A stretch of 64,000 nt of DNA from NCBI GenBank assembly GCA_000004985.1, contig GG738873.1. The stretch is one strand, 5' to 3'. This stretch comes from Naegleria gruberi. Lineage: Eukaryota. Below the pieces are notes generated by a model. It did not search any database and had not been told where the DNA came from. It was given only the letters and a program-made list of their open reading frames with translations. Below are positions 6,257 to 40,976 of this stretch, one piece after another. The stretch's first letter is position 1; every line of letters begins with the position of its first letter. The translations under genes and the position numbers were made by a program.

Positions 6257-6775
6257 CGTTCAATTTATTGAATATCCTCAATGGCTGATGGGATGTTGTT
6301 TGGGTTTTTTTATGAAAAAGCTTTGTTAGTGGGTGGGTTACTTTGTTTCTTCACTTCAATAGACATCAGATTGAGGCGCCACTCATAACAAACTAATATA
6401 GATATGTTAGTGCTAAATACATTTTGAGATTTTGTTTCGTATTAAATATTGCCCCTCACCTCAGAACATTTCATGCATTTGTCGGTGACAGACACATTTC
6501 GGATTTATCGCTGGACGCTTAAATGCAATTCTGAATTCAACCAGGTTTTAGTTACTAGTAAACGTATTTTTCTAAACCTATTTTAGAACAACCAGGTTCA
6601 AGCTTATTTGAACAAAAAACTTATTTAATAATACTCCAATCATTTCATTAATAATATTATTCCAGGCTAAAAAGGGTTCATGGCGCTCCTTTTTGCTTAG
6701 TAAAAAGGTCGCTCCTTTTGAATTGGTGAAGAAATAATATGTGGCAACCTACTCAATGAAACACATTAAGAAAAA

Positions 6776-17535: not shown

Positions 17536-19157
17536 NNNNNNNNNNNNNNNNNNNNNNNNNNNNNNNNNNNNNNNNNNNNNNNNNNNNNNNNNNNNNNNNN
17601 NNNNNNNNNNNNNNNNNNNNNNNNNNNNNNNNNNNNNNNNNNNNNNNNNNNNNNNNNNNNNNNNNNNNNNNNNNNNNNNNNNNNNNNNNNNNNNNNNNNN
17701 NNNNNNNNNNNNNNNNNNNNNNNNNNNNNNNNNNNNNNNNNNNNNNNNNNNNNNNNNNNNNNNNNNNNNNNNNNNNNNNNNNNNNNNNNNNNNNNNNNNN
17801 NNNNNNNNNNNNNNNNNNNNNNNNNNNNNNNNNNNNNNNNNNNNNNNNNNNNNNNNNNNNNNNNNNNNNNNNNNNNNNNNNNNNNNNNNNNNNNNNNNNN
17901 NNNNNNNNNNNNNNNNNNNNNNNNNNNNNNNNNNNNNNNNNNNNNNNNNNNNNNNNNNNNNNNNNNNNNNNNNNNNNNNNNNNNNNNNNNNNNNNNNNNN
18001 NNNNNNNNNNNNNNNNNNNNNNNNNNNNNNNNNNNNNNNNNNNNNNNNNNNNNNNNNNNNNNNNNNNNNNNNNNNNNNNNNNNNNNNNNNNNNNNNNNNN
18101 NNNNNNNNNNNNNNNNNNNNNNNNNNNNNNNNNNNNNNNNNNNNNNNNNNNNNNNNNNNNNNNNNNNNNNNNNNNNNNNNNNNNNNNNNNNNNNNNNNNN
18201 NNNNNNNNNNNNNNNNNNNNNNNNNNNNNNNNNNNNNNNNNNNNNNNNNNNNNNNNNNNNNNNNNNNNNNNNNNNNNNNNNNNNNNNNNNNNNNNNNNNN
18301 NNNNNNNNNNNNNNNNNNNNNNNNNNNNNNNNNNNNNNNNNNNNNNNNNNNNNNNNNNNNNNNNNNNNNNNNNNNNNNNNNNNNNNNNNNNNNNNNNNNN
18401 NNNNNNNNNNNNNNNNNNNNNNNNNNNNNNNNNNNNNNNNNNNNNNNNNNNNNNNNNNNNNNNNNNNNNNNNNNNNNNNNNNNNNNNNNNNNNNNNNNNN
18501 NNNNNNNNNNNNNNNNNNNNNNNNNNNNNNNNNNNNNNNNNNNNNNNNNNNNNNNNNNNNNNNNNNNNNNNNNNNNNNNNNNNNNNNNNNNNNNNNNNNN
18601 NNNNNNNNNNNNNNNNNNNNNNNNNNNNNNNNNNNNNNNNNNNNNNNNNNNNNNNNNNNNNNNNNNNNNNNNNNNNNNNNNNNNNNNNNNNNNNNNNNNN
18701 NNNNNNNNNNNNNNNNNNNNNNNNNNNNNNNNNNNNNNNNNNNNNNNNNNNNNNNNNNNNNNNNNNNNNNNNNNNNNNNNNNNNNNNNNNNNNNNNNNNN
18801 NNNNNNNNNNNNNNNNNNNNNNNNNNNNNNNNNNNNNNNNNNNNNNNNNNNNNNNNNNNNNNNNNNNNNNNNNNNNNNNNNNNNNNNNNNNNNNNNNNNN
18901 NNNNNNNNNNNNNNNNNNNNNNNNNNNNNNNNNNNNNNNNNNNNNNNNNNNNNNNNNNNNNNNNNNNNNNNNNNNNNNNNNNNNNNNNNNNNNNNNNNNN
19001 NNNNNNNNNNNNNNNNNNNNNNNNNNNNNNNNNNNNNNNNNNNNNNNNNNNNNNNNNNNNNNNNNNNNNNNNNNNNNNNNNNNNNNNNNNNNNNNNNNNN
19101 NNNNNNNNNNNNNNNNNNNNNNNNNNNNNNNNNNNNNNNNNNNNNNNNNNNNNNNNN
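17536..19157. other. Assembly gap (1,622 N) inside the giant gene
   Basis: Uninterrupted run of n. Flanking sequence on both sides is coding in the minus orientation. Confidence 0.95.
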
Positions 19158-22100
19158 TTTCTTTTGGTAAATCCAATGTTTGATGCAGTCTTCTTGATTA
19201 CATTCAACTTGATGAATGTATTCTTAACTGTATTCACAAGGTAAATAATATCGTCAACTTTAACAATACTGATCTTGTCAGAGTATTCGGAAAATTGAGA
19301 AATACTTGATGGGTAATTAGCAATTTGTTCAAACTTCATAGAATCTGTCCATAGATTGGTTTTGGAATCTTGTTGAGTAACATTTGCAATAAAGATCTTT
19401 GTTCCTTGATCAGTAATGGTGGCAATCAATATCTTGATACCTGAGGCTTCAGTAGCAGAGATTAGCGCTCTAGCGTTAGAAACTGCGTCCTTGTTTGGGA
19501 ATTCAACAGTTGATATGATTCTAACTCTAGCATCGAAGAAAATAAGGGTTGGTGTTAAGGTATATCTATTACTAGCTGTAAAGACAATTGAAGTAGTATT
19601 ATCAACAACAATATTCAAATCCTTAACTGTTTCTCTGTTGAATGTATGATTGTACAATCGTTTGTTGTCGTATAGGGTTGTCTTGATAATACTGTTTCCT
19701 GAGATATCTCTAGCAGATAAGGATTCATAGAATTCAATAGTAGTAACTGTAAAATTATTTGTGTTAATGGTAATACCATACAAAACAGAGTCCATAATAA
19801 AGATCTTATCAATTTGGTCTGCTTCAGTAAGGCTTGAAAGGTATTTCCAGTTTGAAATTGAGTCAACAATATCCATTTGTGTATAAATTAAAACTGAGAA
19901 ATCATCATAATTAATTACTGTAAAGTAATAAGTCCCATCAAATATTGTTGGAGTAGTAGATTTGATAGGAGATGAAGGTAAACCCAACTCGGAAAGTTTT
20001 TGGGAAGATATGACCACCAAATTACTGCATGCTACATCCATTACAATAATGTCAACCGATTTGGAAGTAACTGAAACAGAATTGACTGTAATATTGGAGC
20101 AAGACTTACTGCTGTCAAAATATTCACAATTCTTGCCGGTAAATTCTTGCTCACAAGAGCAAACATTAGGGAAAACACATACACCATGAGTGCTACAAGC
20201 ATCAGCCAAAGTCTTGTTAAAGCAAACAGGAATGGAACAATTTTCTCCTCTATAATCAGGCCTGCAAACACAAACATCTTGTGAGATACAAGTACCGTGA
20301 GCCGAGCAATTATTTCTATTGGCACAATCAAAGTATGAAGTAATGTTACATTCAATACCCTCGAATCCATAGTCACAAGTGCAATTGTTTGGAGCAGCAC
20401 AATATCCTCTATTACAAGCGTCCTTACCATACTTTTCGTAACAAATAACATACTGACATTCTTCTCCAGTATAACCTTCAGAGCATTTGCAATTATTGTT
20501 AGAAATACAAGCACCCCTGCCACTGCAAACTTGGCTATTATTGACAGATAAACCATAACAAGTATACCAATTACATGTATCAAAATCGTTACAAGTACCC
20601 TTCTTGGCACATACGTTTGGATCAGTGGCTGGTAGTCCATAACAAACCGGTGTAGAACAATTGGTTCCGATATAACCATTGCATTTACAATTGTCTGGAT
20701 AGGTACAATTTCCGTGTCCATTACAAACATTGGTTTCATTAGCTGGAATGTTATAACAAATAGTAAATTCACATTTTGGACCTGTAAAACCTTCACTGCA
20801 TTGACAGGTATCTGGCAAAGAACAAATACCACGACCAGTACAAACATTTTGAGAGTCTGAAGCATTAAAACCATAACAAATTGGAATGGAACAATCTTTT
20901 CCAACATAAGTTGAAATGCATAAGCATAAATCTGTATCGTTACAAATACCATGCCCATAACAAACAGTTGAATCATTTGAAAGAATGTCGAAACAATTTG
21001 AAACTTCACAAGCTGAACCAATGTATCCATTTGAACAAGTGCAATGGTTTGCATAATCACAGGAACCGCGATTGGAACAATCAGTAATATTGTTGACAAT
21101 ACAAGTCCAGTTTTGACAATTATTTCCAAAGTAGTTTGTTTCACATTCACAAGTATTATTGCCAATACATTTTCCTCTGGAGCTACAAACATCTGTTTCA
21201 TTACTTTCCACACCAAAGCAATGGTAGTATTCACAAACATCTGGTGCAATACATTTTCCAATTCTTCCACAAACAGTACTTGTATTAGATACCACACCAT
21301 AACAATTGGTAAGGGAACAGTCTGGAGCAAAGTACCCAACCTCGCATGTACAATTATTAGGTGAACCACAAATACCTCTTCCACTGCAAACTTCTGTTTG
21401 GGTGGAATCAAAGCCAAAGCAAATAGGAAGGGAGCAGCTTTCTCCATCATAAATAGGATCGCAAACACAAGTATCCTTATCCACACATAAACCATGTCCA
21501 GAACAAACATTTGAATCATTTGAAAGAATGTTGAAACAAATGGAAACTTCACAAGCATTACCGACATGTCCTTCTTCACAAACACAGTGATTTGCATAAT
21601 CACAGGAACCGCGATTGGAACAATCAGTAATATTGTTGACAATACAAGTCCAGTTTTGACAATTATTTCCAAAGTAGTTTGTTTCACATTCACAAGTATT
21701 ATTGCCAATACATTTTCCTCTGGAGCTACAAACATCTGTTTCATTACTTTCCACACCAAAGCAATGGTAGTATTCACAAACATCTGGTGCAATACATTCA
21801 CCAATTCTTCCACAAACATCTGGGTGAGTCAAACGTAATCCACCACAAGTTATAATTGAACAATCGACACCATCGGTATTGTTGTTACAAATGCAGGTAT
21901 CAGGAGCAACACAAACACCCTTAGAGCTGCAAACTCGTATGTCTGAAGAATTGAGACCAAAACACATAGGAATAGAACACACACTTCCAGTGAATGTGGA
22001 ATTGCAGCTACAGGTGTCATGAGAAATACATTCACCATTGTTGCTACAAACACCAGATTGGTTGGATAACAAACCATAACAAATTGGAACTTCGCAGTTA

Positions 22101-25100
22101 GAACCATAATAACCGTCATTGCAAACACAAACATCTGGTTCAGAACACAATCCGCTTGAAGAACAAACTGTTTGCTTGTCTGATGGAATTCCGTGGCAGA
22201 CAGGATATTGACATTCAGGACCACTGTATTGTGAAGTGCAATTACAAACGTTAACAGCAACACAATGACCATGACTATGGCAAGTACTGGAACTGTTGGA
22301 TGAAATATTAAAGCACTTATGGAACTCACAGTCAGAACCATCGTGTTCATTATCGCAAGAACAAGTGCTTTCAAATTCACAAACTCCAAAGCCACTACAG
22401 ACCGTTGTGTCATTACCTCTTTTACCATTACAAAGAACAAGGAAAATATCAGGCAATGCTTCACCCAATGAGAATTCTAAACTATACAAGGAGCCATCCA
22501 ATTTGGCATCAGAAACACCTGGTTCCGAACCAATTGTGTTTTGTTTTCCCTTGTTGAACACAGTATTTCTTATCCTCCAATCATCTAGCAAAGTTGAGTT
22601 TACTAGTTTTCTAGTACCATCAACAAACAGGCTAGTACCATGGTTTGTGCTCTTAGAGACAGCAACGGTGTGAATATTATTTTCAAAGGTATGTGGTATG
22701 TTGATATGGGATTCTAGACCATCTGACAAATTGAAACTTAATATCAAAGTGTTATTTTTGTAAACTAATTTCCAATCGGCACCACAAGCAAAATTGAATA
22801 GTGTATGAGTTTTTGAAGGAGAACCATTCATTTTGAATGTAAGAGAAACGGTAAAATTGTTAGAAAACCATCTATCGAATGGTTGATAAACTCCAAGCTT
22901 ACCAAGCACATCAGCCTGTCTTATTGAAAGGGAGATATTTGAGGAGGTAGTCACTTCAGTGCCGTACCCATCAGTAGTGTTGTCGTAAGCCACTGCAACG
23001 ATATCATTGTCAGAACCATTTCCAAACACATATTTTCCTTCGACATATATTGACGAGTTGAAAATTATTGTCTTGTACATAGGTTCCTTTGCTGATAATT
23101 TACAGTCATCACCAAAATAAGGACTGGTACAAACACATGTGTCAACATCAATGCAAGCACCATGATTGGAACAAACTTTTGCTGTGTCGTTAGCATACGC
23201 ACCAAAGCATCTTGGAATTTCGCACCAAGTACCAATCCAATCTTTCTTAAGGTTAGGGTCTGTAGCGTTTGTAGGGTTACAAATGCAATTATCAAGGGAG
23301 TCACATTTTCCATGGGCACTGCAAACTTTTATCAGATCGGTATTTAGAATGTTATTACAAAAATGATATTCACATTTTTCACCAGTGTATCCAGTCTTGC
23401 AAAGACAAGTGTGATTATTAGTGCACTCACCATGTTTACTACAAGCAACGTCGTAGGTTTCATTATGGCATTTAGGCTTAGAACAGTAAAGATCTGTCCA
23501 CAAGTCTTCGCAAGTGCAGTTATTCTTATTATGACAAGTACCGTGACCATTACAAACGAATGTACTGTTGGTGTTCATTATATTATTACAAGTAAAGTCT
23601 TGGCAATACTCTCCATAATAATCGCTAAAGCAGTCACATTTGTTGTACTCAATGCATTTACCTCCTTCATCTTTCTTTTTAAACGAACATTGCACGTTAT
23701 TATCGGAAGAAAATGGAATTCCAAAACAAACAGGACCTTCTTGGTCATAACGGCTTTGTAAACTTTGAGGACTATTCTCAATAGAGATGGTGCTATTGAT
23801 AGTCAAAGAGCTAAGTACAGCAGCATCAAACCTCAGGTTGGATATGCTTCCCATAAAGTATGATTCCCTTGTACTTGGATTATAGCCAATCGCTGACATT
23901 ATATGAATATCAATAGTACGTCTCCAAGAGTAGGTTGTATCAGTGTCCACAAAGCAAGTAGAGAACTCATTGTTAAAACAAACTGAAAGTCCGTTACTGG
24001 TAGAATCTTTAGTGACAGAAACAAAGTAGTATCTATTATATTTCAATAAGTTGCTAACCGATCTAGTTGTGTATTGATCAGTTAGAGACAGTGTAAATCC
24101 ATCAATGGATTCAGTTGCAACTAGCTGCCAGTAGCTTGGAGATCCCATGTAAATAACTGTTTGGGAAGAATTTCCATCCTTCTTTTCTTTCTTCAGCCAC
24201 AAAGTAACGGTGAAATCGTTGTGGAAGAAAACCATGTTTGAATCATGGGCAATGTCAATCTTTGATGATGATCCATCAAAGTAAATACCACTTCTATTTG
24301 AGTTTAACCCATTTGTAGTAATACAATTTTCGCACTCCAATTCTTCGTTGCAATACTTGGATTTTAGACTGTCTGTTTCTTGAACGAGATGTCCTCTTAT
24401 GAATGTCGAATAACCTTGTGTAGTCAAGTTATTGAAATCATACACTTGACTTGTGGCAACCAAGCTGCAATCATCAGCAACATATCCCTTCTTACATTCA
24501 CAATTGTCTGTATATACACAAACACCATGTCCAGAACAAACGTCGGAAGACAATGTAGAAATACCGTAACAGGTAGTGTAGTCAGCAAAATCTTGAATGG
24601 CCTGTTTATCTGAAAAGCCTCCTGCAACAAGAGCAATGAACTTGAAGAAACCATTCAAGGAAGTAGAATTAACATTGTTAAAACCGAAATAAGTTTCTGT
24701 TACCGCTACTAGACTTGTAGTTGATGACAATCTTACAGATGGTAAACCATTGATATAAATGGTAACACCTCTCTGCTTTGACTTTACAAGCGTTACAACC
24801 ACAACAGAGTTGTCAGAAGGTACAACATTATTGTCTGTTTCCACTGTTTCAATTTCAGATTTGTTACTGTTCAAATAGCCAATATATCTAATCGAATTGA
24901 GTGGAGTCTTTTCCAAGAAGAAATTTGATGAGACTATTGGCTGGGCTTGGGTAGATGTATTATCAAATGAAAGTACTATTGTAAATGAAAATTCAGTTTT
25001 GATATTGAAAGGAGAGTTTAAATAAGGTGTAAAGTAGCTATTTTCTCCGTTAAATATAGCACCCTTGTTGTTTGTTATGGTTGCATTGTTGATTATCATT

Positions 25101-28100
25101 TGGAAGAGACTGTCTCGGTCAATTACTACTTTGTCCTCAAGGATTGCTTTTGGGTACCCTATTGGTTGGTCAGCAAGAGCAAAAACAATTCTGTCTCCAT
25201 CTCTTAGCGAAACAGAGGAAATAGACAATTTTGGTAATGTTGAAAGTAAATTACAGAATGGTGCACAGGACAGGGTTGGTGTTGAATTTGTGCTTGAAAA
25301 GAAATCTGATGCATTATCAGTTGTACAGACACCATCAGTAGTATTGCATGTGGTCTTACTTGAATCTACTTGACAATTGGATCCAACGTAAGGAGTTTTG
25401 CATTCACATTTATCTGGAGCAGAACAATATCCTTTACCTGAGCAAACTGTTTTTTCATCTTCAGCTGAAACACCAAAACACAACGGAGTTTGGCACTCTT
25501 CACCAGTGTAATTACCATTACAGACACATACATTTCCACCAAAGCAAACTCCATTATGGCTGCACACAGAACTTTCAAGTTGGGAAATTCCAAAACATGT
25601 AAACAAACTAGTATCCACCCCAGAATAGTTGATTGGATCTATTCTGATAAGGATGAGAGATTCTAAAGTTCCGTTCAAATAAATAGGCAAGTCATTCACC
25701 AAGTCATAACCCACAAAGCTTTCACTTGTCAAAGAAGGATTTAAGGCTAGGAATTCTGGAACACCTCCAAAGAGTCCAAGAGGATTACCGTTTACCAGAA
25801 CAGTTGTCACGTAACTTTTAACAACATTTACATGGTACAGTAAACCAGTGTATGGAATGGCATCCTCTACGGTTAAGGTAATTGGCGATAGAGATGTTTC
25901 ACTAATTCCTTGGATAACAAGAGAAGACCCATCCAAAAAGACTTTCCAGTAGCCTCCATCTTTGAGACTTATGATTGGTTGGATTCCTCCCAAAGATTGA
26001 AGTCTAATATCAAAAGACAAACTAAAGTCATCAGAAAACAAGGTCAAAGGAGACGGATCTTCCAAAATATCGAAGATGACAGATGATTTACCAAATTGTA
26101 AATAACCATTGTTATCAAAAGAAGGATTCTCCACCATTAGGTTAACATGATAAGCTAAATCAAGCAATATTCCGTACATAGGGGCATTAATATCGAAAGA
26201 GTGTGTCAAATTCGAATTTACCACCAATGAGGTATTGTAAGAGATGAACTTGGAGTGTGGTGTATAAACCAAACGATAGTATGGATTTTCTTCCAATGTG
26301 GTTGTTTGGGTAGTCTTAATTTTTTCAATGTAAGAGTTGTCAACTTGACAGTTATTGCCGGAATACCCTACTTTACATTTACAAAAGTCTGGTTTAGTAC
26401 AAGTTCCCTTTCCAGAGCAAACATTCTTATCTTGTGATTGAACTTTGAAACATATTGGGTACTTGCAGTTAGTTCCATAATAACCAACTTTACAAGTGTT
26501 AACAGTGGTATTGACCACACTTGGCTTTGCAGTTGGGTTTGTCGATAATCCACAAAACATGGCTTCAGCGGTAGTTTTTGTATTGTTACAATCAATACCA
26601 ACCTCTATCGTTCCATTGTTAGTCTTATTCAAGTAGTTACTTGGATCATCTAGAGTACAATTAGGATTTCCTTTACATAGAGTGTTTGTAACATCAATAG
26701 AACAGTTTGCTCCAATAAATCCAGGATTACAGGCACATGTATCAGGTGCCTCACAAAGTCCTTTACCAGAACAAACTCTCTTATCATCCGAAGCAATACC
26801 AAAACAAACTGGAGTAGAGCATTTAGAGCCAGTATAATTAGAATTACAGGAACAAACATCCAAACCATAACATTTACCATGGCCATTACAAACTGATGGT
26901 TCAAGTAAAAATGTACCATCACAAGTAAATGCTCTATCAAGTATGTCAGTTGGTGATTGTGGTGTTGAAGCAACAACTATCTTACGTATTTGACCCATAA
27001 AATGTGATTCCTTTCCATCCACAAAGTTATAGCCTATTCTTGCACCCATATCTTTACCTGCCATTGTATTCTTATAGTCTCTACTGAATACAGAGGTGAA
27101 AACTTCCTTATTATTTACAACAACAGATGTACCACTTATGGACGATTTGGTGATTAATATAGAGTAGGGCACATGTTCTACCTCTATTACATATGGAATT
27201 GATATTACTTCAGGTTTTATCAACTCTTTGGTATTACCTTCAATAAACAACACACGGTCAAGCAAGTAAATGTTAAAAGCTGCAACATCAGAAACGAAAA
27301 GTATAGGACTAATTGCTTCGAAACTGTCAATTGTCAGATCTATGTAAATAACGAAATCGTTGATGAATGGGACAAACAGTTTTGAGGTTGGGATGTCCAT
27401 TTTTGCAAGTTTGGGAACAATATAGCTGGCACTATCCACGGACAAGCCTGAAATTTGAACAGTTGTTGAATTTCTAAGTTCAACTAAATTACCAGTTTCG
27501 TCTAAATAAGCTTTGTGAAGCATAAACCTGATGTACGGAATTGTATTATTGCTACTGTCAGGAAGATTAGTTTTTGTAAGGTTATTTGCGGTTAAGTTGT
27601 TGTTTGTAAAGTTACTACTTGTAACATTGTCAAATGTGAAATTGCCCCTACTATTTGTATAGTTATTATATGTGAAATTACCAATTGTAATATTATTGCT
27701 TGTAAAGTTACTAATTGTAAAGTTACTAATTGTAATGTTATCACTCGTAAGGTTACGGATTGTTAAATTAGTATATGTGAAATTACCAATTGTAATGTTA
27801 TCACTTGTAAAGTTACTATTTGTAAAGTTACCAATTGTAATATTATCACTCGTAAGGTTAGTGTTTGTAAAGTTACTGCTTGTTGAATTAGTATATGTGT
27901 AATTACCAATTGTAATATTATCACTTGTAAAGTTACTATTTGTAAAGTTACTGATCGTTAAATTAGTATATGTGTAATTACCACTTGTGGTATTCTCATA
28001 TGTAAAATTATAATAGGTAAAATTGTTGAGTGTCAAATTCGGTATTTCCGTAATTCTCATCACCTCGTTTTCTGGATAATTTGCATCATTTTGGCAATTT

Positions 28101-31100
28101 TGTCCCGTAATAGAATTTCTAAAACATTTACAAAAATCAGGCTTGGTACAATTACCATTTCCACTGCAAACAAGTGGATCTTCTGATTTAACACCAAAAC
28201 AAATTGGTAAAGAACAATTTGATCCATAATATCCTTCTCTGCAAGTGGTTACATTTAAGAGACCTGTTGCATTCTTCTTGGAGCAAAGATACAAATTATC
28301 ACCTGTTGGGTTTGTACAATCAATTTCAAGATCAAGAGTTCCATTAATCTTTGTATTATTACATTTACCTTCAGGATTGGTACATGTCGCCATACTAACA
28401 TTTGTTTGACACTGTGTGCCAATAAAACCAACTTTGCAAGAACATTGATTTGGTTTCTCACAATAACCATTTCCTGAACAAACCTTAGAAAAAGTGGCAG
28501 GAATATTAAAACAAACTGGAATATTGCAGATTGAACCAATGTAAGTGACATTACAGATACAATTATCATAACCAACACATTTACCATTACCACTACAAAC
28601 TTTTGGTGAGGTCATAGATATATTTGCACAGGTGAAAGATTTGTCATTCTTTGGAGGATATTGCGGATCTTCAATAGGTGGAAGATTATCATTGAGTGCA
28701 ATTTCAATCAAATCTAAAGTTCCTGAAAATCCAATAGTGGATCCATCATCCAAAATATCAAAACCAATGTAGCTGTCTCTATTTTGATTCAATGTATCAA
28801 TATAATCATAACTGAAAACACTATTATAACAACGTTTGTTGTTGATGTATACTTGTGTCCCCATTGATTTTGATTTCATTATGAATACATCATAAACCTG
28901 ACCTATTAACTCAATTTCATTTGGTACAGAGATTATATAAGGAAGAGGAGAATCTAAAATACTGGCCTTAATAACCAATGTCGTTCCTGTCAAATAAATA
29001 TTGAAAGAGGCACCACTTTGTATGTTCATGATAGGATTGTATGATTTAAACTCTGTTGGTGAAATTGAGAATGAAACGTAAAAGTTGTTGGTAAATAAGT
29101 AAAGAATTGAAATGACATTGTTGGTATTCAATATTATTTGAGTTCCATCTTTGAATGAAATTATGTTATCTTGATCAATTACCAAATTCTTTACAAGTAC
29201 CTTCATTTCACTTCCAAGCTCTTCAATATACATATTACCATCAATGTCTGGTTCACTTATATAAAGAGGATCAATAACAAGTCTAAAACTAGTAAGGTTT
29301 TGTTTCAATTCATTTTGTAAATTAGTAATATTTTGTAGTAATTCAATATTTACACCACAATCTAATCTTGTAAATGTTGAATTAAAACATTTACAAAAAT
29401 CAGGCTTGATACAATTACCATTTCCACTGCAAACAAGTGGATCTTCTGATTTAACACCAAAACAAATTGGTAAAGAACAATTTGATCCATAATATCCTTC
29501 TCTGCAAGTGGTTACATTTAAGAGACCTGTTGCATTCTTCTTGGAGCAAAGATACAAATTATCACCTGTTGGGTTTGTACAATCAATTTCAAGATCAAGA
29601 GGTGTATTAATAGTTGTACAGTTACCTTCAGGATCCATACATGTTGTCATAGAAAGGTCTGTTTGACATTGTGTACCAATAAAACCAACTTTGCAAGAAC
29701 ATTGATTTGGTTTCTCACAATAACCATTTCCTGAACAAACGTTAGGTAAAGTTGCCGGGACAGTAAAACAAACTGGTATGTCGCAATATTTACCAATATA
29801 AATCCCATTACATTCACACAAATCATTACCATAACATTTTCCATTGCTATTACATGCTTTTGGTGATGTCAAGTAAATACCATTACAAGAGTAAGCAAGT
29901 TGGTCGTTCACAATTGCTAATATTTGTGAGTAATTATTACTACCTATTTTGGACATTTGGATATCATCAATAGTGCCAGAAAATGTGATTTTGTTACCAT
30001 CTTTAAAATCAATACCAACATAACTATTGGCAGTTTTGTTAGAAAGTGAGGTCAAAAAGCTGTAACTGAAAACACTATTGTACTCCTCATGTCCATTAAT
30101 ATAAACTTGAGTTCCGTCTTCAAATGATTTCATAATCAAAACAGAATATTCAATGTTAGTGAATTCAATACCATTAGGAACTAGCTGTACTATTGGATAG
30201 GGGAATTCTACAGTCAAGCCTTCAATGGCTAAAGTTGTGCCCATCAAGTAAATACTGAAGCAGGCCCCACTAGTAATATTCATTATTGGATTGTAGTCTT
30301 TGAATTCAGTAACCACAATCTTGAAGGAAATGTAAAAATCATTGGTGTACGTGTATAAGGGAGAAATAGTATTGTATGTACTGATGATTAAACCACTTCC
30401 GTTTTCGAAAGAAATTGTACCATTAGAGACAACAATGTCAACAACGGTAATCTTTAAAGATCCACCCAATTCCTCTAGCACAGCAGTGTCTGTATCAACA
30501 GCGAGCAATTTTCTTCGAGTACTAAACTTTTGACTGCCAGAGCTTGGATAAGTGGTATTTTTTACAAATGTTGGGCTAACTTTTAATCTAAAACTATAGT
30601 CAGGATATTCTGTTCTCATGTTGTACTGGATTTTAATCAACTCTTTAATGTATTCGTTATCAACACCACAATCTCTTCTAGAGAACGTTGAGTTATAACA
30701 ACGACAATAATCAGGTTTTGTACAATTACCATTTCCATTGCAAACAAGTGGATCTTCTGATTTAACACCAAAACAAATTGGTAAAGAACAATTTGATCCA
30801 TAATATCCTCGTGGGCAAGGGTTACCGGGCAATAAAGGTAACGCAACAGATTTACCACCACAAAGATAAATTTCTGTATCAGTTTGTGGATTGGAACAAT
30901 CGTATTCGTTAATATATTTTCGAGTTCTAAAATACTTTGTTGGGTCATTTGCAAAACAATCACCATTTACGTCTGTGCAAGTTGTTGCACTTAGATCTGT
31001 TTGGCATTGTTCACCAGCATATCCAACCTTGCAAGCACAAAAACCTGGTTTCTCACAGTGTCCATTTCCAGAGCAAACCTGAGAACAGTCAGCGGAAATA

Positions 31101-34100
31101 CCAAAGCAGACTGGAATATCACAATTTGATCCTGTGAAGTTTCTGTTGCATTCACAAACGTTATTACCATAGCATTTACCATTAGAATTACAAACTTGAG
31201 GGGATGTCAAGTAAATTCCTGCACAGAAGTGTCCCTTATTCTCTCTGAGTAAATTAGCTACTTCAACCGAGGATAATCCGAGGTTGCTGCCGATTTGAAT
31301 ATCATCAATATAGCCATTTAAACTTATTTTATGGCCTTCCTTAATGTCAAATCCAATAAAACTATCAGCATTTTGTTGGGGTAAAGTAACAACAAAGTCA
31401 TAGCTAAATGGAGTAGAATACCTCAATACCCCATTAACAAATACTTGAGTACCTGTGCTAGTTGATTTGGTTATTAATATTGAATATATCTGATTTTCAA
31501 CTTCAACTTCTCCATGAACAGAAATAATGAACGGGGAAAGTTCAATTGTATGGCCTTCAAAAACCAATGTGGTTCCAATTAGATATATGCTAAATGAAGC
31601 CCCACTAGTAATGTTCATGATAGGATTGTAATCAGTAAATTCTTCAATTATCAATTTGAAAGATATATAGTAGTCATTAGTAAATAGATATAAAGGGGTA
31701 ATGTTTGTCTTTGTGTGCATTATGACCTCAGTACCATTACGGAAAGAAATTGAATTATTATTCAAAACAAGGTTATTGATTTGGATAGTCATATTACCGC
31801 CCAGTTCTTGCAAATATTTCTTGTCAGCAGTAGTGAACATAAAGTCCGAACTAAGTTTAAGTCTGAAAGAATAGTTGGTATCGTTGGCCTTCAAAAGTTG
31901 TTGAATAGTGTATAATTCTTGTAAAAAGGTAGCATTATTACCACAGTTTTGTCCGCTTATGGAGGATTCAAAACATTTGCAAAAATCAGGCTTAGTACAA
32001 TTACCATTTCCATTGCAAACAAGTGGATCTTCTGATTTAACACCAAAACAAATTGGTAAGGAACAATTTGATCCATAATATCCTTCTCTACAAATACTGA
32101 CATTGCTAAAAACAGGAGATCCAACCAACATTGTTTGCCCACAAGCATAAATGTCTTGACTATTTTTGCAATCAGGTGAGCTGGAGGTAAAATTCAAGCC
32201 CTTACTTGCAATGTAATTAGTGGCATTGTTGGAAGCACAATTACCCTCTGGATCTGTACATGTTGACTTAATTAGTTCAGTTTGGCATTTAGACCCTACA
32301 AACCCAACATTACACTCACAGATGTTTGGCTTTATACAAACACCATGTCCTGAACATACACCGGCATCATTGCTAACTATATTGAAACACATTGGAAGAG
32401 AACAAGAAAGTCCTGAATAGTTAGAGTTACATATACAAACATCAAAGCCGTTACAAACACCATTTCCGTTACATACTTTTGTCGAATTCATGTGAATTCC
32501 GTTACACTTGAAAGCACCTCCAATTGCAGCAATATTGGTAATTTCAGACTCTTGCATTCCGTAAACTCCAAAAATCATGAGCTCGTCTATGTAACCATGA
32601 GAAGGAGAAAAACCAACAGAACTGTAGGTGTTTTGAGATTCGTTCACAGAAATGTAATCATCATAGTGTTCAAATATATAATCTGGAGTAGACTTTCCAT
32701 CCAAGTACACTCTGGTACCTAAAGAGCTTGATTTAACAACCAAAATCTTGTACCATTTGTCTAAAGTTTCAATCATCGGTGTCAACAGCGTTTGCTCTTG
32801 CACCAAATTTGTCTGGGTTCCATTTATATATAGTTTAGTTCCTTGTAAGTAAAGGAACCAGTTAGCAAGATTGTTGATTGAAATAATATGTTTAACAGTA
32901 TTGTCTATACTGGTAAGGTAAATCTTGAAAGATATTGCAAAGTCATTCACTGTCCTTCTTGTTAAAGCACAAGGAACATTTGAATCTAACATTGATTTAT
33001 CATTTGCTGCAAGTTGATGAAGAGAAGTGTTTGTTTGTGAGGAAATTGCAAAACCCATAGAATAGGTTTCTTGTCCACAGGTGGACAGCTCTTCATAGGC
33101 AGCATTTGTATAGTTTGAATCAATTTGACAGTTGTGACCATGGAAGCCAGAATAACATAAACAAAAATTCTTATATTTACAACTTCCATGCCCACTACAA
33201 ACATTATGATCTTCCTGTTTAACTCCAAAACACATTGGCTTGCATCTATAGGTAACATTAGGGTCTTGATAATAGCCTTCTTCACATACTGTGATATTAT
33301 AAGTTGTATTTGCTGTTATGTGAGCATCAAGAATTAGCTGTTTACAAGCTGCACTGGGAGCGACAGAGGATAAACATTCTTGAACTGTTTGATCTACAAC
33401 AGTATCAGGTTTTACAAAGCCATTTGGAAACTCAATTGGATTATAAGCTCCAGTTTCGTTTATCACACTTAGGTTGTTATGGATAAAAAACGCTTGAGGA
33501 TCTACACTATCCACAGCAGTTCCATTTTCATTGTGAACATATAAAATTGCATTATTGATTTGACACTCCAATCCTGTGAAAGAAAGGTCACATTTGCATT
33601 CATCGGTACTATGACAATCACCATGGCCTGAACAAACAGAAACGTTAGTTGCCGAGACGTTGTGGCAAAAAGGAACTTGGCAATTATTACCTTCACTATA
33701 AACACACTCACATAAATCTCTACCTAAACATAATCCTTTTCCTGAACAAACAATTGGACTATCATATCTAATACCATTACAATACCAAAGAGAAGATATT
33801 TCTTCAGTCATATTATAGGAAAACCAAAGAAGTTCAATATAGCCTTCCAATGCCAAGTCGCCAACATAACTTTCACCCTTAGTGTTGGTAACAAGATCCT
33901 CAGTAATGGTAGTGTCATTAAAAATGACATTACTATCAATAGAAATAGTTAAACCTCGTTCTGATGATTTGGTAATTTGAAATTCGTATAAATGATTTGG
34001 TAAAATGAGAGAAAGGCCTAATATAATAGTTTTTGATTTGAGTGATCCTTGCTTAGTTTCAAATATTAAATCATTTCCATTAGTAGAAAGTTTCCAACCG

Positions 34101-37100
34101 GCAATGTTATTCAAGTCTAGCAAAGTTTGGTTTCCATCTAAGGTGAAAAATAACACCCTAACAGTAACTTGGAAATTATTGTAGAGAATGATATATGGTG
34201 AGTTAGTGTTACCACTTGCCAGTGTTGCCCTCAAGCAGCCCTTATTATCACTAGCCGATTGATAGTCTTTCAAATTGTACATTGCATCCAATCCTCGAAC
34301 CTCAGCACCTAACATATATTTGTTGTCGAATATATTACGCAAGCTGAACGATTCTCCGTATGTTGCGATTATGGATTCAAAAATAGTGTCTTTGATTGCG
34401 CAATTGGACCCACTGTATCCAAAATCACAAGTACAGTTATTAAGACCATCACATTGTCCGTGACCACTACAAACTTCAGAAGTGTTGCTACCTATTCCGA
34501 AACATGTTGTATTTTCGCATTTATCTCCAGAGTAACCATCTTTACATTCACACAAGCTTTCACCGATGCAAATGCCTCTATTGTTGCAAACTGTTGGGTT
34601 TTTATCTCCATGGCAACCCACAGCACTATAAAAACCTTTTTTGAGGTGATAATCCTGATAGTCAAAAAAGGCAATAGCAACATTGTCTACAAGTCCATTA
34701 AGGTAACTGTCACCTCTGATACTCATACCAATAGTAGAACTCTGTGTTTGGTTTTGTCTTTTGTTAAACTTTGAGGTAAAAGTAGAATTAATATACACGT
34801 CTGTTGTATTAGCAACAAGCTTCAACCCTTGAGACGAGCTTTTCACAAGGGCCAAATAGAAAGGATAAGTGCTGACACTATATTGTGAGACAATTACTGA
34901 GTCGTCATATAATTTTAGTTTCAAAATGTTGTCAGTGTCAACAAATAATTCCCATGTTGTATCATCATCGTTGAACACAATGGTTTGGCGAGAACCTAAT
35001 ACATTCATCTTAAGCCAAAAGGCAACAGAAAAATCATTCGAAAGGCTAGTGAACATGGAGTATCCTGAGAATACAGAGTAGGATTGGCCAGAAAGGAGCA
35101 AAGCACTCCCCCCACCAGGTAAAAAACTGTTGGTGTAGCTTGCATTGTAAAACACAGAAGTGAAGTTGTAATTCTTGTCTAAAAAGTACATTCTATTTGG
35201 GCCAGTTGAGATAGGATTATTAAAATCATAAAAAGTAATTTTAGATGGTGATCTTTGGGTTTCCTTTAGATACTTCAAATAAAAATCAGTTCTGGCAAAA
35301 GAGAAGGCACAAACAGAAAATTCTGCAGTAAGAAAATCTCCAACAGATTGACAAGGTACGGGGTCATTGGATGAGGAAGGCAATGTGCCACCTAGTGAGT
35401 AACCAGAACTAGATTGGCTATCATCGAATTGTTGAGAGCAACCACCCTGTAAGTTTAGTGGACAAATTGGCTTGGAACCATTCAAGTCCAACTCCAACAG
35501 TTTTTCACATTCTAAACCTTCATAGTTAGGGTTACAAGTACAATTATCGTAGTTAACACATTTACCTCTACCACTGCAAACATCAGAGCTGTTGCCATTA
35601 ATTCCGAAACAAGTGTATATGGGGAAATCGCAAACTGTAGCATGATATGGTTCAGAGCATCTGCACTCATCAGAACCAATACAAATACCATTGTAATTAC
35701 AGTACTTATCAGCTTCCATTTGTTCTATTCCTTGACATTGCCATTCTCGTTCAATATCTCTCAACACAATGGATGAAGAATTGAATTTCCAAATTATTAA
35801 CCTGTCCAGAACACCTTCGAAGAAATTACCTTTTGTTTGAGGGTTGACCCCAATTGTGGAGTTATCTGCCTCAATACTCGGATCTACCAATTTGTGAAAA
35901 TCTTCGACTCTTTTATAATCATAAATTGCAATTTTACCATTGACTTCAATCGTTAAGCCATCCAAAGAGCTCTTCTTGATGTAAATATCATAATCGCCAA
36001 TTTCATCATTTTTTGGAGGTATTGACTCAGATTTGTGAGTAATAATTTGTACCTGTGCATTATTTGCATTGTGGTTTGTTGATTGGAAAATAAACTCCCT
36101 CTTATTGGACATTAATAATCTCCAGTATGAACCATCAGAAACATGGATTATTTCGTGATATATTGTTTCAATAAATTGTGCCACCGTAGAAGATCTAATT
36201 TTAAGGTTCAACACAAAATTATTTCTTAAATGTCTGAAAGGAGAGTTATTGCCGGATATGTCAATGAAATTTTTTCCGTCTAGTTTGAGAAAACCACCAA
36301 TATCACTTTGCACATCTCCAACCATAGAAAAATTACAATTACCTCTTAATTCTCCCAAAGAATCGTTGTAAGGCAAGTATTTGCGATTGAACATCCACTT
36401 GAGAGTATAACTATCTCCAAATATTGTTTGGTTAACTGTAGTTGGGATGAGCAAGAAACTACAATTGTTACCATAATGGAGATTGTCACAGAGGCATGAA
36501 TCTGTGTCAACACAAGTACCAAATCCAGAGCAAACCGCTTGTTGGGTAGATTGTATTCCAAAACAAGTTGAAATTGAACAATCAGGTCCAAGGTATTGTG
36601 GAAGACATTCACACAAGTACTCCCCAACACATTCACCTCCTCTACACAAATCTGGGTTATTAACAAACAAAGAATTATGGCAACCATGACCTTTCCATTT
36701 CATCTTCGTTAGCAAACGGTTAATTGAGAGGTTATCAACCCCAGCATAAAAGAAAGCATAAAATTCATCAAGATATCCATGAAATTGACCAGACATAGAA
36801 TTTAAATCATAACCAATAGAGCTTCTTTGAGAATTAGAGGAACTGGGTCTAGTATTTGACGAAAAGGAACCAGTTATATCTACCCTTTGCAAACATTGTT
36901 TTCCATCGATGTAAATACGTAATCCAGTAACAGAAGATTTGGAAATAAAAACATGGCTAAAAGAGCTAGTTAGTTTCTCGACAGTGTCAAAACAACGTGA
37001 ACCACAAATTTCAACTCCATCAACGTTGACACAAAGCTCAGGACTTCCTTCTAACAGTTTAAGAATAAGGTTCCATTTTGTTACTGTATAGTTTACAGAT

Positions 37101-37981
37101 AAAATAAACTGATCTGTTGACAAATAAGATGTATCTGACAATTGTAACCAAAAACTCAATGTAAAGTTATTTTTCAGTTCAATAAATGGTGTTCTATCTA
37201 GAAGGATGTAGCTTTGGTCGGTTAAACCAAATTTGAAAGATCTTCCTTTTTTTACCACGTTAGACTCCAAATCAATACCATTTGATGCTAGTTGGAGTGG
37301 TTTGGTTTTTTCTCTAACGAACTGAACTCCTCCAATATTGGTAAGGTTGTCAAAATTAAAATACATTTCATAATCAGCATCTACATCATAGCTGATATCG
37401 TCTTGTAATTCTGTACATTGAGGATTGCTAAGTATTTCACTTGTTGTTGAACAAATAGGTGATTGGTAAGAGTATTGAGATGTCCCTAAAGTTGCGATTA
37501 CGCTTGAACTAGAGGAAGACAAAGGGCAATTGCCTAGTAAATCTTTTTGGCAAGTACTTGCAGTCGATTGCAGAAGAGACTCACAAAACACACCTGAAAA
37601 GCCAGGATTGCACTGACAAATTTCAGGACCAATACAAACACCATTGCCACTGCAAACACCGGGAGCACCTTCAGACATTCCACCACATACAATAGTTTCG
37701 CAATTTGTATTGGCGAAGCCTGGGGAACAACTACATAAATCTTCACCAATACAAACACCGTTACCGGAGCAGGCATTAACAAGATCCGATGAATGAACAC
37801 CAAAACAACTGAAGGAGCTAACTTGGCATGTACAATAAATCAAGAAAAGAAAGACTATAAATACAAATCTTATTGCACAAATATTTCTAGTAGATAAAAA
37901 GCGGAATAGATGTGGTGTTGTTGGGCAAAGATCATCACCCTTGGCACCACAACAAAAACCTGTATTCCTCATATCATTCAT
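19158..37981 (-). CDS. Giant extracellular adhesion-type protein. It has a signal peptide and dozens of EGF-like modules alternating with ConA/LamG-like modules of about 200 aa. About 6,270 codons are resolved in one uninterrupted exon upstream of the gap, and the gene continues through the gap to 16788.
   Basis: ORF track 17519..38071 (minus) is open for 20 kb. The probable start ATG is at 37981 (MNDMRNTGFCCGAKGDDLCP..). The signal-anchor/signal peptide is ICAIRFVFIVFLFLIYCTCQVSS. Dozens of C-x-S/N-G-x-G-x-C...C-x-C-x-x-G(F/Y)-x-G-x-x-C modules are present, for example CSGNGVCIGPEICQCNPGFSGVFCE and CSGHGQCDGLNNCTCDFGYSGSNC. Interspersed non-Cys modules of about 180-220 aa carry F..SFWL.. and ..Y(I/V)(D/N)G.. 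motifs typical of ConA-like/LamG/pentraxin folds. NxS/T sequons are very dense. No stop occurs for 18.8 kb, so no intron is needed. Confidence 0.75.
21050..21820. repeat. Recent tandem duplication (unit about 543 bp, about 226 bp near-identical) inside the giant CDS, duplicating a pair of EGF-like modules
   Basis: ORF-track plus-strand antisense ORFs 21044..21364 and 21566..21838 contain an identical 77-aa run (IITGTAIGTISNIVDNTSPVLTIISKVVCFTFTSIIANTF..NIWCNTF). On the coding strand this is the repeated segment CGRIG(E/K)CIAPDVCEYYHCFGVESNETDVCSSRGKCIGNNTCECETNYFGNNCQNWTCIVNNITDCSNRGSCDYANHC. Confidence 0.8.
27560..28040. repeat. Coding minisatellite (21-63-nt units) inside the giant CDS encoding an array of N-glycosylation sequons
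   Basis: DNA units such as gtaaagttactaattgtaatgttatcact repeat many times. The translation (minus strand) is ..NFTYTNLTISNFTNSNFTSDNITIGNYTYTNSTSSNFTNTNLTSDNITIGNFTNSNFTSDNITIGNFTYTNLTIRNLTSDNITISNFTISNFTSNNITIGNFTYNNYT.. Confidence 0.8.
28131..32100. repeat. Four tandem repeat units of about 1.26-1.31 kb inside the giant CDS, each encoding one LamG-like + 3xEGF-like module. Cores of about 210 bp are near-identical between units.
   Basis: Core sequence caaaaatcaggcttggtacaattaccatttccactgcaaacaagtggatcttctgatttaacaccaaaacaaattggtaaagaacaatttgatccataatatcc.. recurs at about 28131, 29394, 30704 and 31981. The protein-level repeat is CNGIYLTSP(K/Q)ACNSNGKCYGN..CREGYYGSNCSLPICFGVKSEDPLVC(S/N)GNGNC. 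More diverged units flank the array at about 26.3 kb and 33.1 kb. Confidence 0.8.
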
Positions 37982-38141: not shown

Positions 38142-40976
38142 ATGGCAAGAAACAATTTTTTTATTGCAATACTGGCTGTTTTTATTTTAGGATTAATTAC
38201 AGGTAGGTAGTAAAATCAACAAGAAGATGTAACACGGACTAGTTAATCTTTGTACCAATATTGTTAATGCTCAGGATGAAAATTCAGCAACAACAGAACA
38301 AGTGCAAAACCTTAAAGCTCAAAAACTTCTTCAAAATGATTTTTTAGAAGTGTTGAGCGTATTGCAAAAGCAGCAATCTGACCTCTCAGACGCAAACACC
38401 AAGAAGAAGCTGTTGGATACAAAGGAAGCTATTGAAATTTCTGGTCCATACCTGGCTGCTCTCAACATTACCTCGGATCAATTTACAACCATGCTAGCCA
38501 ATAAGCAAACTCAATTGCAAAGTGTAATGAGCTTGGAATTGGAGTTGAAGAATTTGATATCATTGACCCAAAACTCTGCTAATATTGTTGGTGATAACAT
38601 CAAAAATTTTGTAGCTGTAAGTATTAATTGTTTGTCTTTTATATTTAACATTAGCAGTTGTTCACAAAAAAAGCCTACACTGTGGATCAGTATCAAAATA
38701 CAACAAAAGAGGTACATAGATATGATCTTAATATTACCCAAGTTGATGCAATTGTTCCAAACTATCTAACTGCTTACCCAGTGAGAAGAATTAGAAATCG
38801 TATTTCAGTCGGTTTTCAACACGTGTTAGTACTAAACCAAAATGGGAAGTTGTACTCTACAGGTATTCCTTCTTATGGAAATCTGGGAAGAACCAACACT
38901 GATTCAAGAATGTTATATAACTTGCCTGTTCAAGGATTGGATGGTCTTGATATCCTTCAATTTGATGCCAATTATTACTCAAACCTTGTTTTAACCAATG
39001 ATGGAGTTTATTCATTTGGGTTGAATGACAAATCACAGATGGGAACTGGAGATAGAAATGACAGATATGTCGCTGGAAAGGTTTACGGATTTGGTGGACA
39101 AAATATTGTTCAAATAGCCATGGGACGCCAAGCATCCTATGCCATTGATTCCAACGGCAAGTTATGGGCCTGGGGTGACAATACCATGTACGGTCAATTG
39201 GGAGACAGAACCTTTTCTGAAAAGAATCGTCCTTTCCCAGTTTACAGCTATGGCGCTATTAACAGCACGGCTGTGGTTAGGGTTTGTGGGGGTGGTTACT
39301 TTGCTCTTGCCTTACTTGCAAATGGAAATATGGTTTCGTTTGGTGATAATTCATATGGACAGCTAGGTGTTAATAACCCATTAATTTCAAAATCGGGAGA
39401 ACCATTGTTGGTGGTTAAACCTTCAGAACTAGCCTCAAAGACAATTGTTGACATTCAATGTGGTTATGATTATGCAATGGCCCTTACATCATCAGGTGAT
39501 GTATATACTTGGGGAAACAACAATTACGGCCAATTGGGTGATGGAAGTTCTGGAGGTAAATCCCCAATTCCACAAAAGATCACAATTTCTGGCTGTACAG
39601 TATCCCAAATCCACACAAAATACCAAAGCTCATTTGCTTTGTGTACAAGCAACGAACTGTATTCATGGGGAATGAACTCTGTTGGCCAACTTGGAAGAAC
39701 TAGTAACCAAATACCAACAACTACCCCAACCAGAGTTGATCCTTCGTCGTTCTTGTCCAGCACTGATGACTATTTGGGCTTCCCCAAAATTATTGAGATA
39801 TCCTCCAATTTTAACAACATGTTCCTTACCACATCTGATTTGAGTATTTATGGAACCGGATCATGTATTGATGGTTCTAAACAGCAATTTGCCTTCTTCT
39901 ACACTACAAGATCCAGTGATTATGGGGCTTGCACTAGTTCCAATATTTTCTCCTTGAATTCAATGTCAAAGATGCCAACTTTCTCTTCTATTAGTTATCC
40001 AGTATCCCTTAGAAAGGCCCAATATTTTGAGATTGGAACAAGAGCCTACCTCCTTCAAACAGATACAGTAGTTCCAACCAGACCTAATAATGGCTTTAAT
40101 ATGTATTATAAGCAATTTGCTGATCCAGAAAACTCTTGGTCTATTATCGAACGAAATGAAGCCACCAACGCAGGTTTTCCTGTATCAATTTACAACAGCC
40201 ACTTCCTTAAAGCTGATGAATATGTCTACTTCTTTGGTGGTTTCATCAATGACGAAGTTTCAAATAAGATTTACAGGGCTCCAATTTATGATGTTGAATC
40301 TGGATGGGAACTCTGTAATTTTACTCTACCATATTCTGTTGCAAGTGGTATGACAACAGTTATTAATGGATACATTTATATTTTTGGTGGTATAACCAAG
40401 ATCTATTCCTACAATGGCGGTGAACTTCCAACTCTTTCTCCAACAGTTACAAACCAAATAATTAGAGCCCCAATTAATAATTTGACAAATTGGATGGTTG
40501 TTTCAGGAAAGGTATTGCCATCCGCTATACACAGTGCTTCCATTACAATTATTGACAAGTATGTCTATTTATTTGGAGGTTCCCCATCTTATTACTCTTC
40601 CAGCCAAGAAGTTTACAGAGCTTTGATTACTGATCCTTCATCTTGGGAAATGACTTTTGGTTTACTTCCATTCTTTGTAACAAATGGTGCTTTTATCTCA
40701 ACTGGTAATGAATTGTTAATGGTTGGAGGCACAGCTTCTGGCAGTTTAGTGAATGGAGGATTTATGGCGATTTCAAAGAAGTCACAATTTGACCCAGTCG
40801 GCTCATGGATGGCTAGTGATGTATTCTTACCTTCAAATGCTGCCCAATCTCTCATTACAGTGATTAGAAACGACACAGTATTGCTCTACGGAACTGAATT
40901 GCACCGTAGTACTTCTTACACTCCCCACTCACCAAAAATTGGAAGAGTTTTGAAGCTTGCACTCGATCTGTACTAA
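38142..40976 (+). CDS. Paralog A: secreted protein with coiled-coil + RCC1-like beta-propeller + Kelch-like beta-propeller; 3 exons, 918 aa
   Basis: Exon 1 is 38142..38202 and encodes MARNNFFIAILAVFILGLITG. Intron 1 is 38203..38242 (40 nt, GTAGGT..CTAG, phase 1). Exon 2 is 38243..38616. Intron 2 is 38617..38654 (38 nt, GTAAGT..TTAG). Exon 3 is 38655..40976. The frames of ORFs 38302..38769 and 38658..40976 join exactly. The predicted signal peptide cleaves near ..IVNA|QDEN. About seven RCC1-like blades carry G.N..GQLG motifs, for example YGNLGRT, GLNDKSQMG, GDNTMYGQLGD, GDNSYGQLG, GNNNYGQLGDG and GMNSVGQLG. The Kelch-like repeats are YVYFFGG, YIYIFGG and YVYLFGG. Confidence 0.8.

Follow-up and report, generated by a model that had tools for sequence, protein, structure and literature searches.

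Short-patch gene conversion as the probable source of mosaic identity among old tandem LamG/EGF modules in a giant gene of Naegleria gruberi

Concerted evolution and ectopic gene conversion are established features of genes encoding surface or secreted proteins built of tandem modules, among them the yeast FLO/ALS adhesins, the kringle IV modules of human LPA, the mucins and trypanosomatid DGF-1. For DGF-1, gene conversion is mentioned in bioRxiv 10.64898/2026.07.27.741050. In this study we focused on a gene with a comparable design, NAEGRDRAFT_58267 of Naegleria gruberi, which lies within a 64,000-nucleotide stretch of contig GG738873.1 (assembly GCA_000004985.1); the whole of this stretch is referred to as the window. 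Its giant coding sequence (CDS) is an uninterrupted minus-strand frame of 6304 codons, running from 38071 to 19158 and ending at a block of Ns (17536-19157), and it is referred to below as the pre-gap open reading frame (ORF). As in the systems named above, its modules are in frame, short tracts that are identical at synonymous sites stand amid diverged flanks, and the units cluster by species. It differs from them in that the units are old, with LamG parts sharing 32-48% of their amino acids, and only patches of 70-250 nucleotides (nt) appear to have been homogenised. A further difference is that the host is a free-living heterolobosean amoeba, with no documented copy-number polymorphism or phenotype.

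At the level of the protein, the closest described systems are neurexins, Crumbs, agrin, NELL and Gas6/protein S, glycoproteins of the type I membrane or secreted kind in which concanavalin A (ConA)-like/LamG domains likewise alternate with EGF domains. Unlike a family relationship, this likeness is confined to domain and fold, at 11-17% identity, and the N. gruberi protein is far larger than the metazoan LamG/EGF ectodomains (about 7,000 amino acids), with more modules and with EGF domains of the tenascin/teneurin type. The Foldseek and domain comparisons from which the likeness comes gave no evidence of orthology or of shared ligands with these metazoan ectodomains. As for teneurin and tenascin, the Pfam models EGF_TEN, EGF_Teneurin and EGF_2 are the best matches of the N. 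gruberi EGF domains, but the EGF subtype is all that teneurins have in common with this protein. Membership of the teneurin family was considered and rejected; the pre-gap ORF (amino acids 1-6304) passes the Pfam cut-offs only for EGF models and Laminin_G_3.

Repeat finders and self-BLAST place the landmarks of the tandem units at 28120, 29383, 30694 and 31969, with spacings of 1263, 1311 and 1275 bp, all of which are divisible by three. Downstream of the landmark at 28120, 1749 bp away, a unit that has diverged more has its landmark at 26375, and another diverged unit lies upstream at 32093-33286; together they form a subfamily of six units, U0-U5 (Table 1). The order within a unit is a core EGF, a Cys-free LamG-like module, two EGFs and a Cys-containing linker. 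A first-pass annotation, made from the letters of the DNA, had described consecutive in-frame units of about 1.26-1.31 kb inside the giant CDS, each with one LamG-like and three EGF-like domains, and had proposed a self-comparison as a check. The periods are present where it placed them, the composition is borne out by alignment, by Pfam for the EGFs and by AlphaFold2/Foldseek for the LamG-like module of U3, and the self-comparison recovered both the tandem units and a separate 543-bp period. The same annotation called the units near-identical 1.27-kb repeats, and this description does not hold, as most of each unit has 40-70% DNA identity and the LamG parts are strongly diverged.

This identity is uneven along the units. 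Units U1-U4 were labelled V0-V3 in the sliding-window (60-nt) and run comparisons. Between pairs of U1-U4, the LamG parts have 32-48% amino acid identity and a proportion of synonymous differences (pS) of 0.70-0.79, which is saturated. DNA identity over most of the unit is mostly 30-75% in 60-nt windows, the full range being 30% to 100%, and no whole-unit pair exceeds about 70% outside the tracts. The core EGF has a pS of only 0.18-0.34. In the sliding window a core of about 100 nt stands at 87-100% in all four units, and with its surroundings (about 100-135 nt) it keeps 87-100% DNA identity. For V2-V3 only, identity is 78-100% over about 400 nt. The innermost part of the core, 69 nt long, occurs in four copies (starting at 28166, 29429, 30740 and 32015) with 0-1 mismatch, where chance would predict 0 copies. 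Cores of about 210 bp shared almost identically by all four units had been reported previously; a near-identical four-way core does exist, but it is about 100-135 nt long, and only two units share a longer tract of 246 nt. The latter (28120-28365 and 29383-29628) is 96% identical, contains an exact match of 192 nt (28147-28338 and 29410-29601), and is itself nested in a 495-nt alignment of 87.7% (28120-28614 and 29383-29871).

The relationships among the units also change from segment to segment. Over the LamG part, U1, U2 and U3 stand equally far apart (47-48% amino acid identity), and in the core all four are alike. In the EGF pair and the linker U2 resembles U3 far more closely, at 78% and 90% nucleotide identity respectively; for the linker the remaining U1-U4 pairs have 45-49%. 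Domain borders do not confine the tracts: the core takes in the last part of the Cys-containing linker together with two-thirds of the EGF that follows. A similar mosaic is seen in the 543-bp repeat of the EGF array. Here 21048-21255 equals 21591-21798 exactly over 208 nt within an alignment (20822-21275 and 21368-21818) of 84.8%, and identity falls from 100% over the 208 nt to 63-87% over the adjoining 200 nt or so and to about 50-60% elsewhere. The first-pass annotation had taken this repeat for a separate recent tandem duplication; its period is real and 208 nt of it are exact, but it is not uniformly recent.

Codon identity helps to separate the effect of protein-level selection from that of recent copying. 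Over the 32 codons of the core (CREGYYGSNCSLPICFGVKSEDPLVCxGNGNC) the same codon is used at 93-100% of identical residues, compared with 42-52% in the LamG module and first EGF, and Fisher tests of this contrast give p values of 3e-5 to 1e-9. In the 208-nt tract all 67 identical residues (67/67) have the same codon, against 37/54 outside it (p = 2e-7). In a GENECONV-type run test V2 and V3 share 74 consecutive identical polymorphic sites, a length reached in 0/5000 permutations. The four-way core is nearly invariant and so leaves the run test powerless there, and for this part the case rests on the codon-identity test. No signal of GC-biased conversion was found, the GC content being 0.34-0.35 in the tracts and 0.35 in the CDS (about 0.35 in the window).

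Analysis of related sequences proved informative in helping to understand these patterns. A metagenome contig (ENA ERZ27315067, k141_657981, here L001; GC 0.35) carries two tandem units of the same architecture at 3994-6497, 1284-1290 bp apart, with 75% identical DNA and 74% identical LamG protein. They share a near-exact tract of about 160 nt in the C-terminal half of the LamG module (4832-4992 and 6116-6276), with exact stretches of 62 and 95 nt. The position of this tract elsewhere in the unit speaks against any special nucleic-acid element in the core and in favour of recombination and turnover as a general habit of the gene family. The three genes called on L001 are probably pieces of one giant gene. 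A metagenome scan with a 32-nt piece of the core gave no matches. Units cluster by species, with identities of 47-50% among U1-U3, 74% between the L001 units and 34-39% between species, a pattern that, as far as sequence comparison goes, would fit either turnover or homogenisation. Within N. gruberi, XP_002667946, from an unplaced contig of 1,054 bp, is the N-terminus of a paralog, comprising a signal peptide along with two EGFs and one LamG-like module. Its identity is 43% with U1 and 42% with the N-terminus of the giant ORF, and the motif FSCF..SSDLVN.CSG is common to both N-termini. At least one further gene of this family is thus present in unassembled sequence.

The modules have recombined recently. 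We regard it as probable, and with good confidence, that this took the form of short-patch ectopic gene conversion among old, diverged tandem modules, and not of recent duplication of whole units. On this account the units of about 1.27 kb would have arisen from old in-frame tandem duplications and would since have diverged to synonymous saturation. Tracts of 69 to about 250 nt, and an older one of up to about 500 nt, would then have been copied recently from unit to unit by non-allelic intragenic gene conversion or by an equivalent short-patch unequal exchange, and the same process would have produced the identical 208-nt tract in the 543-bp EGF repeat. The EGF core may still undergo conversion because its copies have remained alike enough for recombination. 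The nested tracts (495 nt at 88%, 246 nt at 96%, 192 nt exact) point to conversion events of different ages. Gene conversion is the simplest account because protein-level selection cannot make synonymous sites identical and a recent duplication of whole units cannot leave saturated LamG parts.

The alternative that the units are young copies, made by unequal crossing-over in an array that is expanding or contracting now, draws on their head-to-tail order and in-frame periods (1263, 1311, 1275 and 543 bp), on the closer relationship of U1-U3 to each other than to the units of the metagenomic relative, and on an unusual truncated EGF, CGRIG.CIAPDVCEYYHC, present in both copies of the 543-bp repeat. 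It is nevertheless very unlikely, as the LamG parts are at a pS of 0.70-0.79 while the tracts are 96-100% identical, and the flanks are unique in every unit. The earlier proposal of ongoing expansion or contraction by unequal crossing-over survives in that recombination among modules has been recent; the saturated LamG parts speak against any recent whole-unit duplication, and one genome gives no direct evidence on copy number.

Several considerations weigh against gene conversion and have to be set beside it. One is that the tracts might owe their preservation to selection acting on the nucleotide sequence as such, with an embedded RNA element, a signal for regulation or splicing, or extreme codon constraint as candidates, and retention of the 69-nt core in four units, where it encodes the best-conserved EGF, would agree with this. 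We give this idea hardly any credence, since an Rfam scan of the whole window matched no family, the V2-V3 tract includes the linker, where the other pairs vary most, no similarity was detected between the 69-nt core and the 208-nt tract of the EGF array, and the near-identical tract of L001 is in the LamG half instead. Nor does codon bias explain the pattern, because outside the tracts only 42-52% of identical residues have the same codon. It could also be supposed that collapse or chimeric joins during assembly produced the copy number or the tracts, in a region that is repetitive, that has a sized gap in the same gene and that is represented among small unplaced contigs with related sequence (XP_002667946, XP_002668011). 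This too is highly improbable. The genome comes from what we take to be a JGI (Joint Genome Institute) Sanger shotgun project, and Sanger reads are longer than the exact tracts (at most 208 nt, or 246 nt at 96%), whose flanks are strongly diverged and unique. The reading frame is intact at all junctions over 18.9 kb, the unplaced gap contig encodes non-repetitive sequence, and a comparable mosaic exists in an independent assembly (L001). Collapse of the repeats is unlikely for the same reasons of tract length, unique flanks and intact frame, and units that are not near-identical at the kilobase scale carry little risk of it. To these considerations may be added that the run test is significant only for V2-V3, with V1-V3 marginal (p = 0.017) and the other pairs not significant; that the data are one haplotype of one strain, which puts donor and recipient polarity and population data out of reach; that L001 is from a short-read metagenome assembly; and that the link from the pre-gap ORF to the transmembrane helix and tail, described below, is drawn from frame openness, the gene model and a 31-amino-acid overlap and not from contiguous sequence.

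Table 1. Positions of the repeat units, homogenised tracts and other features in the window (AF2, AlphaFold2; positions count from the first nucleotide of the window).
Feature	Position	Strand	Basis or remark
Probable full CDS of NAEGRDRAFT_58267	16788-37981	-	N gap inside; frame openness and gene model
Assembly gap, 1622 N, within CDS	17536-19157	.	
Subfamily of six tandem units U0-U5	25247-33286	-	protein alignment; Pfam; AF2/Foldseek of U3
Unit U1, 425 codons	30818-32092	-	protein alignment
Unit U2, 437 codons	29507-30817	-	protein alignment
Unit U3, 421 codons	28244-29506	-	protein alignment
Unit U4, 583 codons, includes pentapeptide sequon array	26495-28243	-	protein alignment
15-nt (pentapeptide) array rich in N-x-T/S sequons	27597-28069	-	repeat finders, alignment
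Homogenised core, copy 1, 69 nt	32015-32083	-	1 mismatch
Homogenised core, copy 2, 69 nt	30740-30808	-	exact
Longer putative conversion tract, copy A, 246 nt	29383-29628	-	holds core copy 3 (29429-29497)
Longer putative conversion tract, copy B	28120-28365	-	holds core copy 4 (28166-28234)
543-bp (181-codon) EGF-array repeat, N-terminal copy	21368-21818	-	
543-bp EGF-array repeat, C-terminal copy	20822-21275	-	
RCC1-like/Kelch paralog	38658-40976	+	
RCC1-like/Kelch paralog	41452-43086	-	apparently N-terminally truncated or split
RCC1-like/Kelch paralog	52653-55130	-	EGF-like Cys-rich segment at end
RCC1-like/Kelch paralog	56078-58750	-	
RCC1-like/Kelch paralog	59589-61799	+	

The product of NAEGRDRAFT_58267 is probably a heavily N-glycosylated type I membrane protein of about 7,000 amino acids, provided that the frame continues across the gap. 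The hydrophobic N-terminus of the product is signal-like; a giant LamG-like/EGF ectodomain follows, then a single transmembrane (TM) helix and an acidic cytoplasmic tail of about 70 amino acids. Only two 19-mers in the whole protein have a Kyte-Doolittle mean above 2.2, one at amino acids 64-82 of the ORF and the other in the post-gap TM helix. The former, ICAIRFVFIVFLFLIYCTC, follows the ATG at 37981, which is the first of the giant ORF, and is succeeded by further EGF and LamG-like modules; it was judged signal-like by Kyte-Doolittle hydrophobicity. The latter, GAVAIILIVTVLVFVVAGI, is in the post-gap exon and is followed by YYRRKK. The pre-gap ORF has 185 N-x-S/T sequons, about 14 candidate LamG-like modules, recognised as Cys-free stretches, and at least 43 EGF-like domains (43 regular-expression matches to the six-Cys pattern). 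Beyond the EGF/LamG array a Cys-free, non-EGF region of at least 289 residues reaches into the gap.

The domain assignments differ in the kind of evidence behind them. EGF_2 (PF07974), EGF_Teneurin (PF23106) and EGF_TEN (PF25024) are matched throughout, all four quarters of the ORF being far above the cut-offs, with 65-219 bits across the quarters for EGF_2 (cut-off 22.1) and 237 bits for EGF_TEN in the C-terminal array. The Cys-free module of U1 scores 24.9 bits against Laminin_G_3 (PF13385; E = 2.6e-5), the gathering cut-off being 27.6, and those of U2, U3 and U4 give no match to this model; other Cys-free modules of the same protein pass it at 46.1, 33.9 and 29.8 bits, and the U modules align with these. 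An AlphaFold2 model of the U3 module has a mean pLDDT (predicted local distance difference test) of 67.6 and a pTM (predicted template modelling score) of 0.68, with values mostly of 77-95 over residues 90-180 or so and low confidence in the first 90 or so. Searched against the PDB with Foldseek, the model matched ConA-like/LamG folds, among them NEL TSPN, BoNT/TeNT Hc-N, laminin alpha2 LG5, the LNS domain of neurexin 1beta and the N-domain of thrombospondin-1, with E values of 5e-7 to 6e-6 and a probability of 1.00. A sequence profile search of the PDB with the alignment of LamG modules gave weak matches only, the best being an S-layer domain protein (E = 0.005). Judged by the predicted structure, the label LamG-like is right at the level of the fold. 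The signal-like N-terminus, the huge glycosylated LamG/EGF ectodomain, the single TM helix and the short acidic tail suggest a cell-surface receptor for adhesion or recognition, and the term adhesin used in the first-pass annotation is a plausible guess from domain content.

The existing model of the gene, found by exhaustive profile search, is XP_002676246.1 (EFC43502.1, NAEGRDRAFT_58267, UniProt D2VHZ3), a 'predicted protein' of 5396 amino acids. It is identical to amino acids 1022-6210 of the ORF plus a last exon beyond the gap that ends at the stop at 16788, and it crosses the Ns by means of an 'intron' of about 2 kb (about 19440-17411), which is probably an artefact of annotating over an assembly gap. 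The model begins at an internal Met (ORF amino acid 1022) and leaves out about 990 in-frame upstream codons (35008-37981 of the window, minus strand) that hold the signal-like segment and further EGF and LamG-like modules. A metagenomic relative (P0013), collinear with ORF amino acids 555-1498 at 31.5% identity, covers the region upstream of the model start. On the other side, the frame from 17534 is open between the gap edge and the stop at 16788. Three features, namely the open frame of some 990 codons upstream, the open post-gap frame and an unplaced contig whose sequence continues into the gap, suggest a real gene that exceeds XP_002676246 in length and lacks the 19440-17411 intron; if the gap has been sized correctly, the full length of the gene is probably about 7,060 codons. 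An end of the ORF at 17519 ('FILK*') was rejected, as it arises when N is translated as X over a gap whose size is an estimate. Searches of the literature on Naegleria EGF/LamG proteins, on the identifiers of the gene and on gene conversion in Naegleria found nothing specific to NAEGRDRAFT_58267.

The contig that reads into the gap encodes XP_002668011 (partial, 366 amino acids, from an unplaced N. gruberi contig of 1,276 bp). The C-terminal end of this protein, SFETKNISTRCDFKEGENMKLDMK, matches window 17528-17436 (minus strand) at the low-coordinate edge of the gap, where 27 of 31 amino acids are identical and the mismatches, NLGT against TWVH, resemble compensating frameshifts. Such mismatches suggest low-quality read ends, and these may be why the contig was left unmerged. 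From the overlap XP_002668011 extends about 335 amino acids into the gap, with 4 Cys in its 366 residues and a Thr-rich run; it matched no Pfam family and showed no similarity elsewhere in the giant protein. It probably fills most of the gap, roughly 1 kb of 1.62 kb. The gap had been attributed to the same repetitiveness as the tandem units, an attribution that this unique Cys-poor sequence and the 289 non-EGF residues preceding the gap do not support, and these repeats are probably not its cause. For annotation, the practical outcome is an apparently missing N-terminus of about 990 residues in XP_002676246, a probably artefactual intron and, in XP_002668011, a likely gap filler.

Some local features of the gene deserve separate mention. 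In U4 the pentapeptide array separates the core EGF from the LamG module and explains the extra 480 bp or so of this unit. It has about 31 pentapeptides with an N-x-T/S sequon in each (for example NFTNS NFTSD NITIG), higher-order periods of 75-120 nt at 80-92% identity and, in the 178 amino acids that contain it, 31 sequons; of all places in the gene, this is where length polymorphism is most to be expected. The +1 frame of the EGF array has open stretches of 592 and 204 codons (20041-21819 and 21850-22464, minus strand). The longer one exceeds in length all of 2000 codon-order shuffles. As an overlapping gene it was rejected, its product being hydrophobic gibberish (MFV...), and it is probably a by-product. 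It probably arises because the V/I/L codons of EGF domains usually precede the TGT of Cys, which avoids stops of the forms xTA|A and xTG|A. Directly downstream of the giant gene, an ORF of 208 amino acids (16114-16740) is read from the same minus strand. It contains several hydrophobic segments, matched no Pfam family and is probably a small gene of its own for a membrane protein.

Elsewhere in the window, several ORFs exactly match N. gruberi NEG-M proteins of one scaffold, including XP_002676245 (an adenylate/guanylate cyclase), XP_002676165 and XP_002676166. A cluster of five paralogous genes (Table 1) encodes proteins in which Kelch-type repeats come after an RCC1-like propeller, with Pfam WD40_RLD scores of up to 226 bits. 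A 955-amino-acid ORF (47340-50207, plus strand) combines a Ser-rich N-terminus with a long Glu/Lys-rich, coiled-coil-like middle containing repeats of the (VEKEVEKI)n type, and had no Pfam match at E <= 0.001. Another ORF, of 276 amino acids (11262-12092, plus strand), falls in the 90%-identity cluster of the 532-amino-acid XP_002676167 (in UniRef a 'Novel toxin 11 domain-containing protein'), and identical or near-identical fragments are on an ENA contig of 3,347 bp, so that N. gruberi-like DNA is present in one or more further public assemblies.

What is observed here is recent recombination between modules, together with a clustering of the units by species; rate, function and any selection for variability lie beyond this evidence. 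It is conceivable, though improbable, that the homogenised EGF cores are maintained as recombination anchors by which the diverged LamG modules are shuffled or the array is resized in meiosis or mitotic growth. If this were true, the gene would be a diversity-generating surface receptor of a free-living protist, with a role for example in the recognition of prey, substrate or mates. Patterns of this kind are common in the genes of repetitive surface proteins. What is new, and of modest weight, is the quantified, patchy concerted evolution in a giant heterolobosean LamG/EGF gene, in a lineage where LamG/EGF membrane proteins are uncharacterised.

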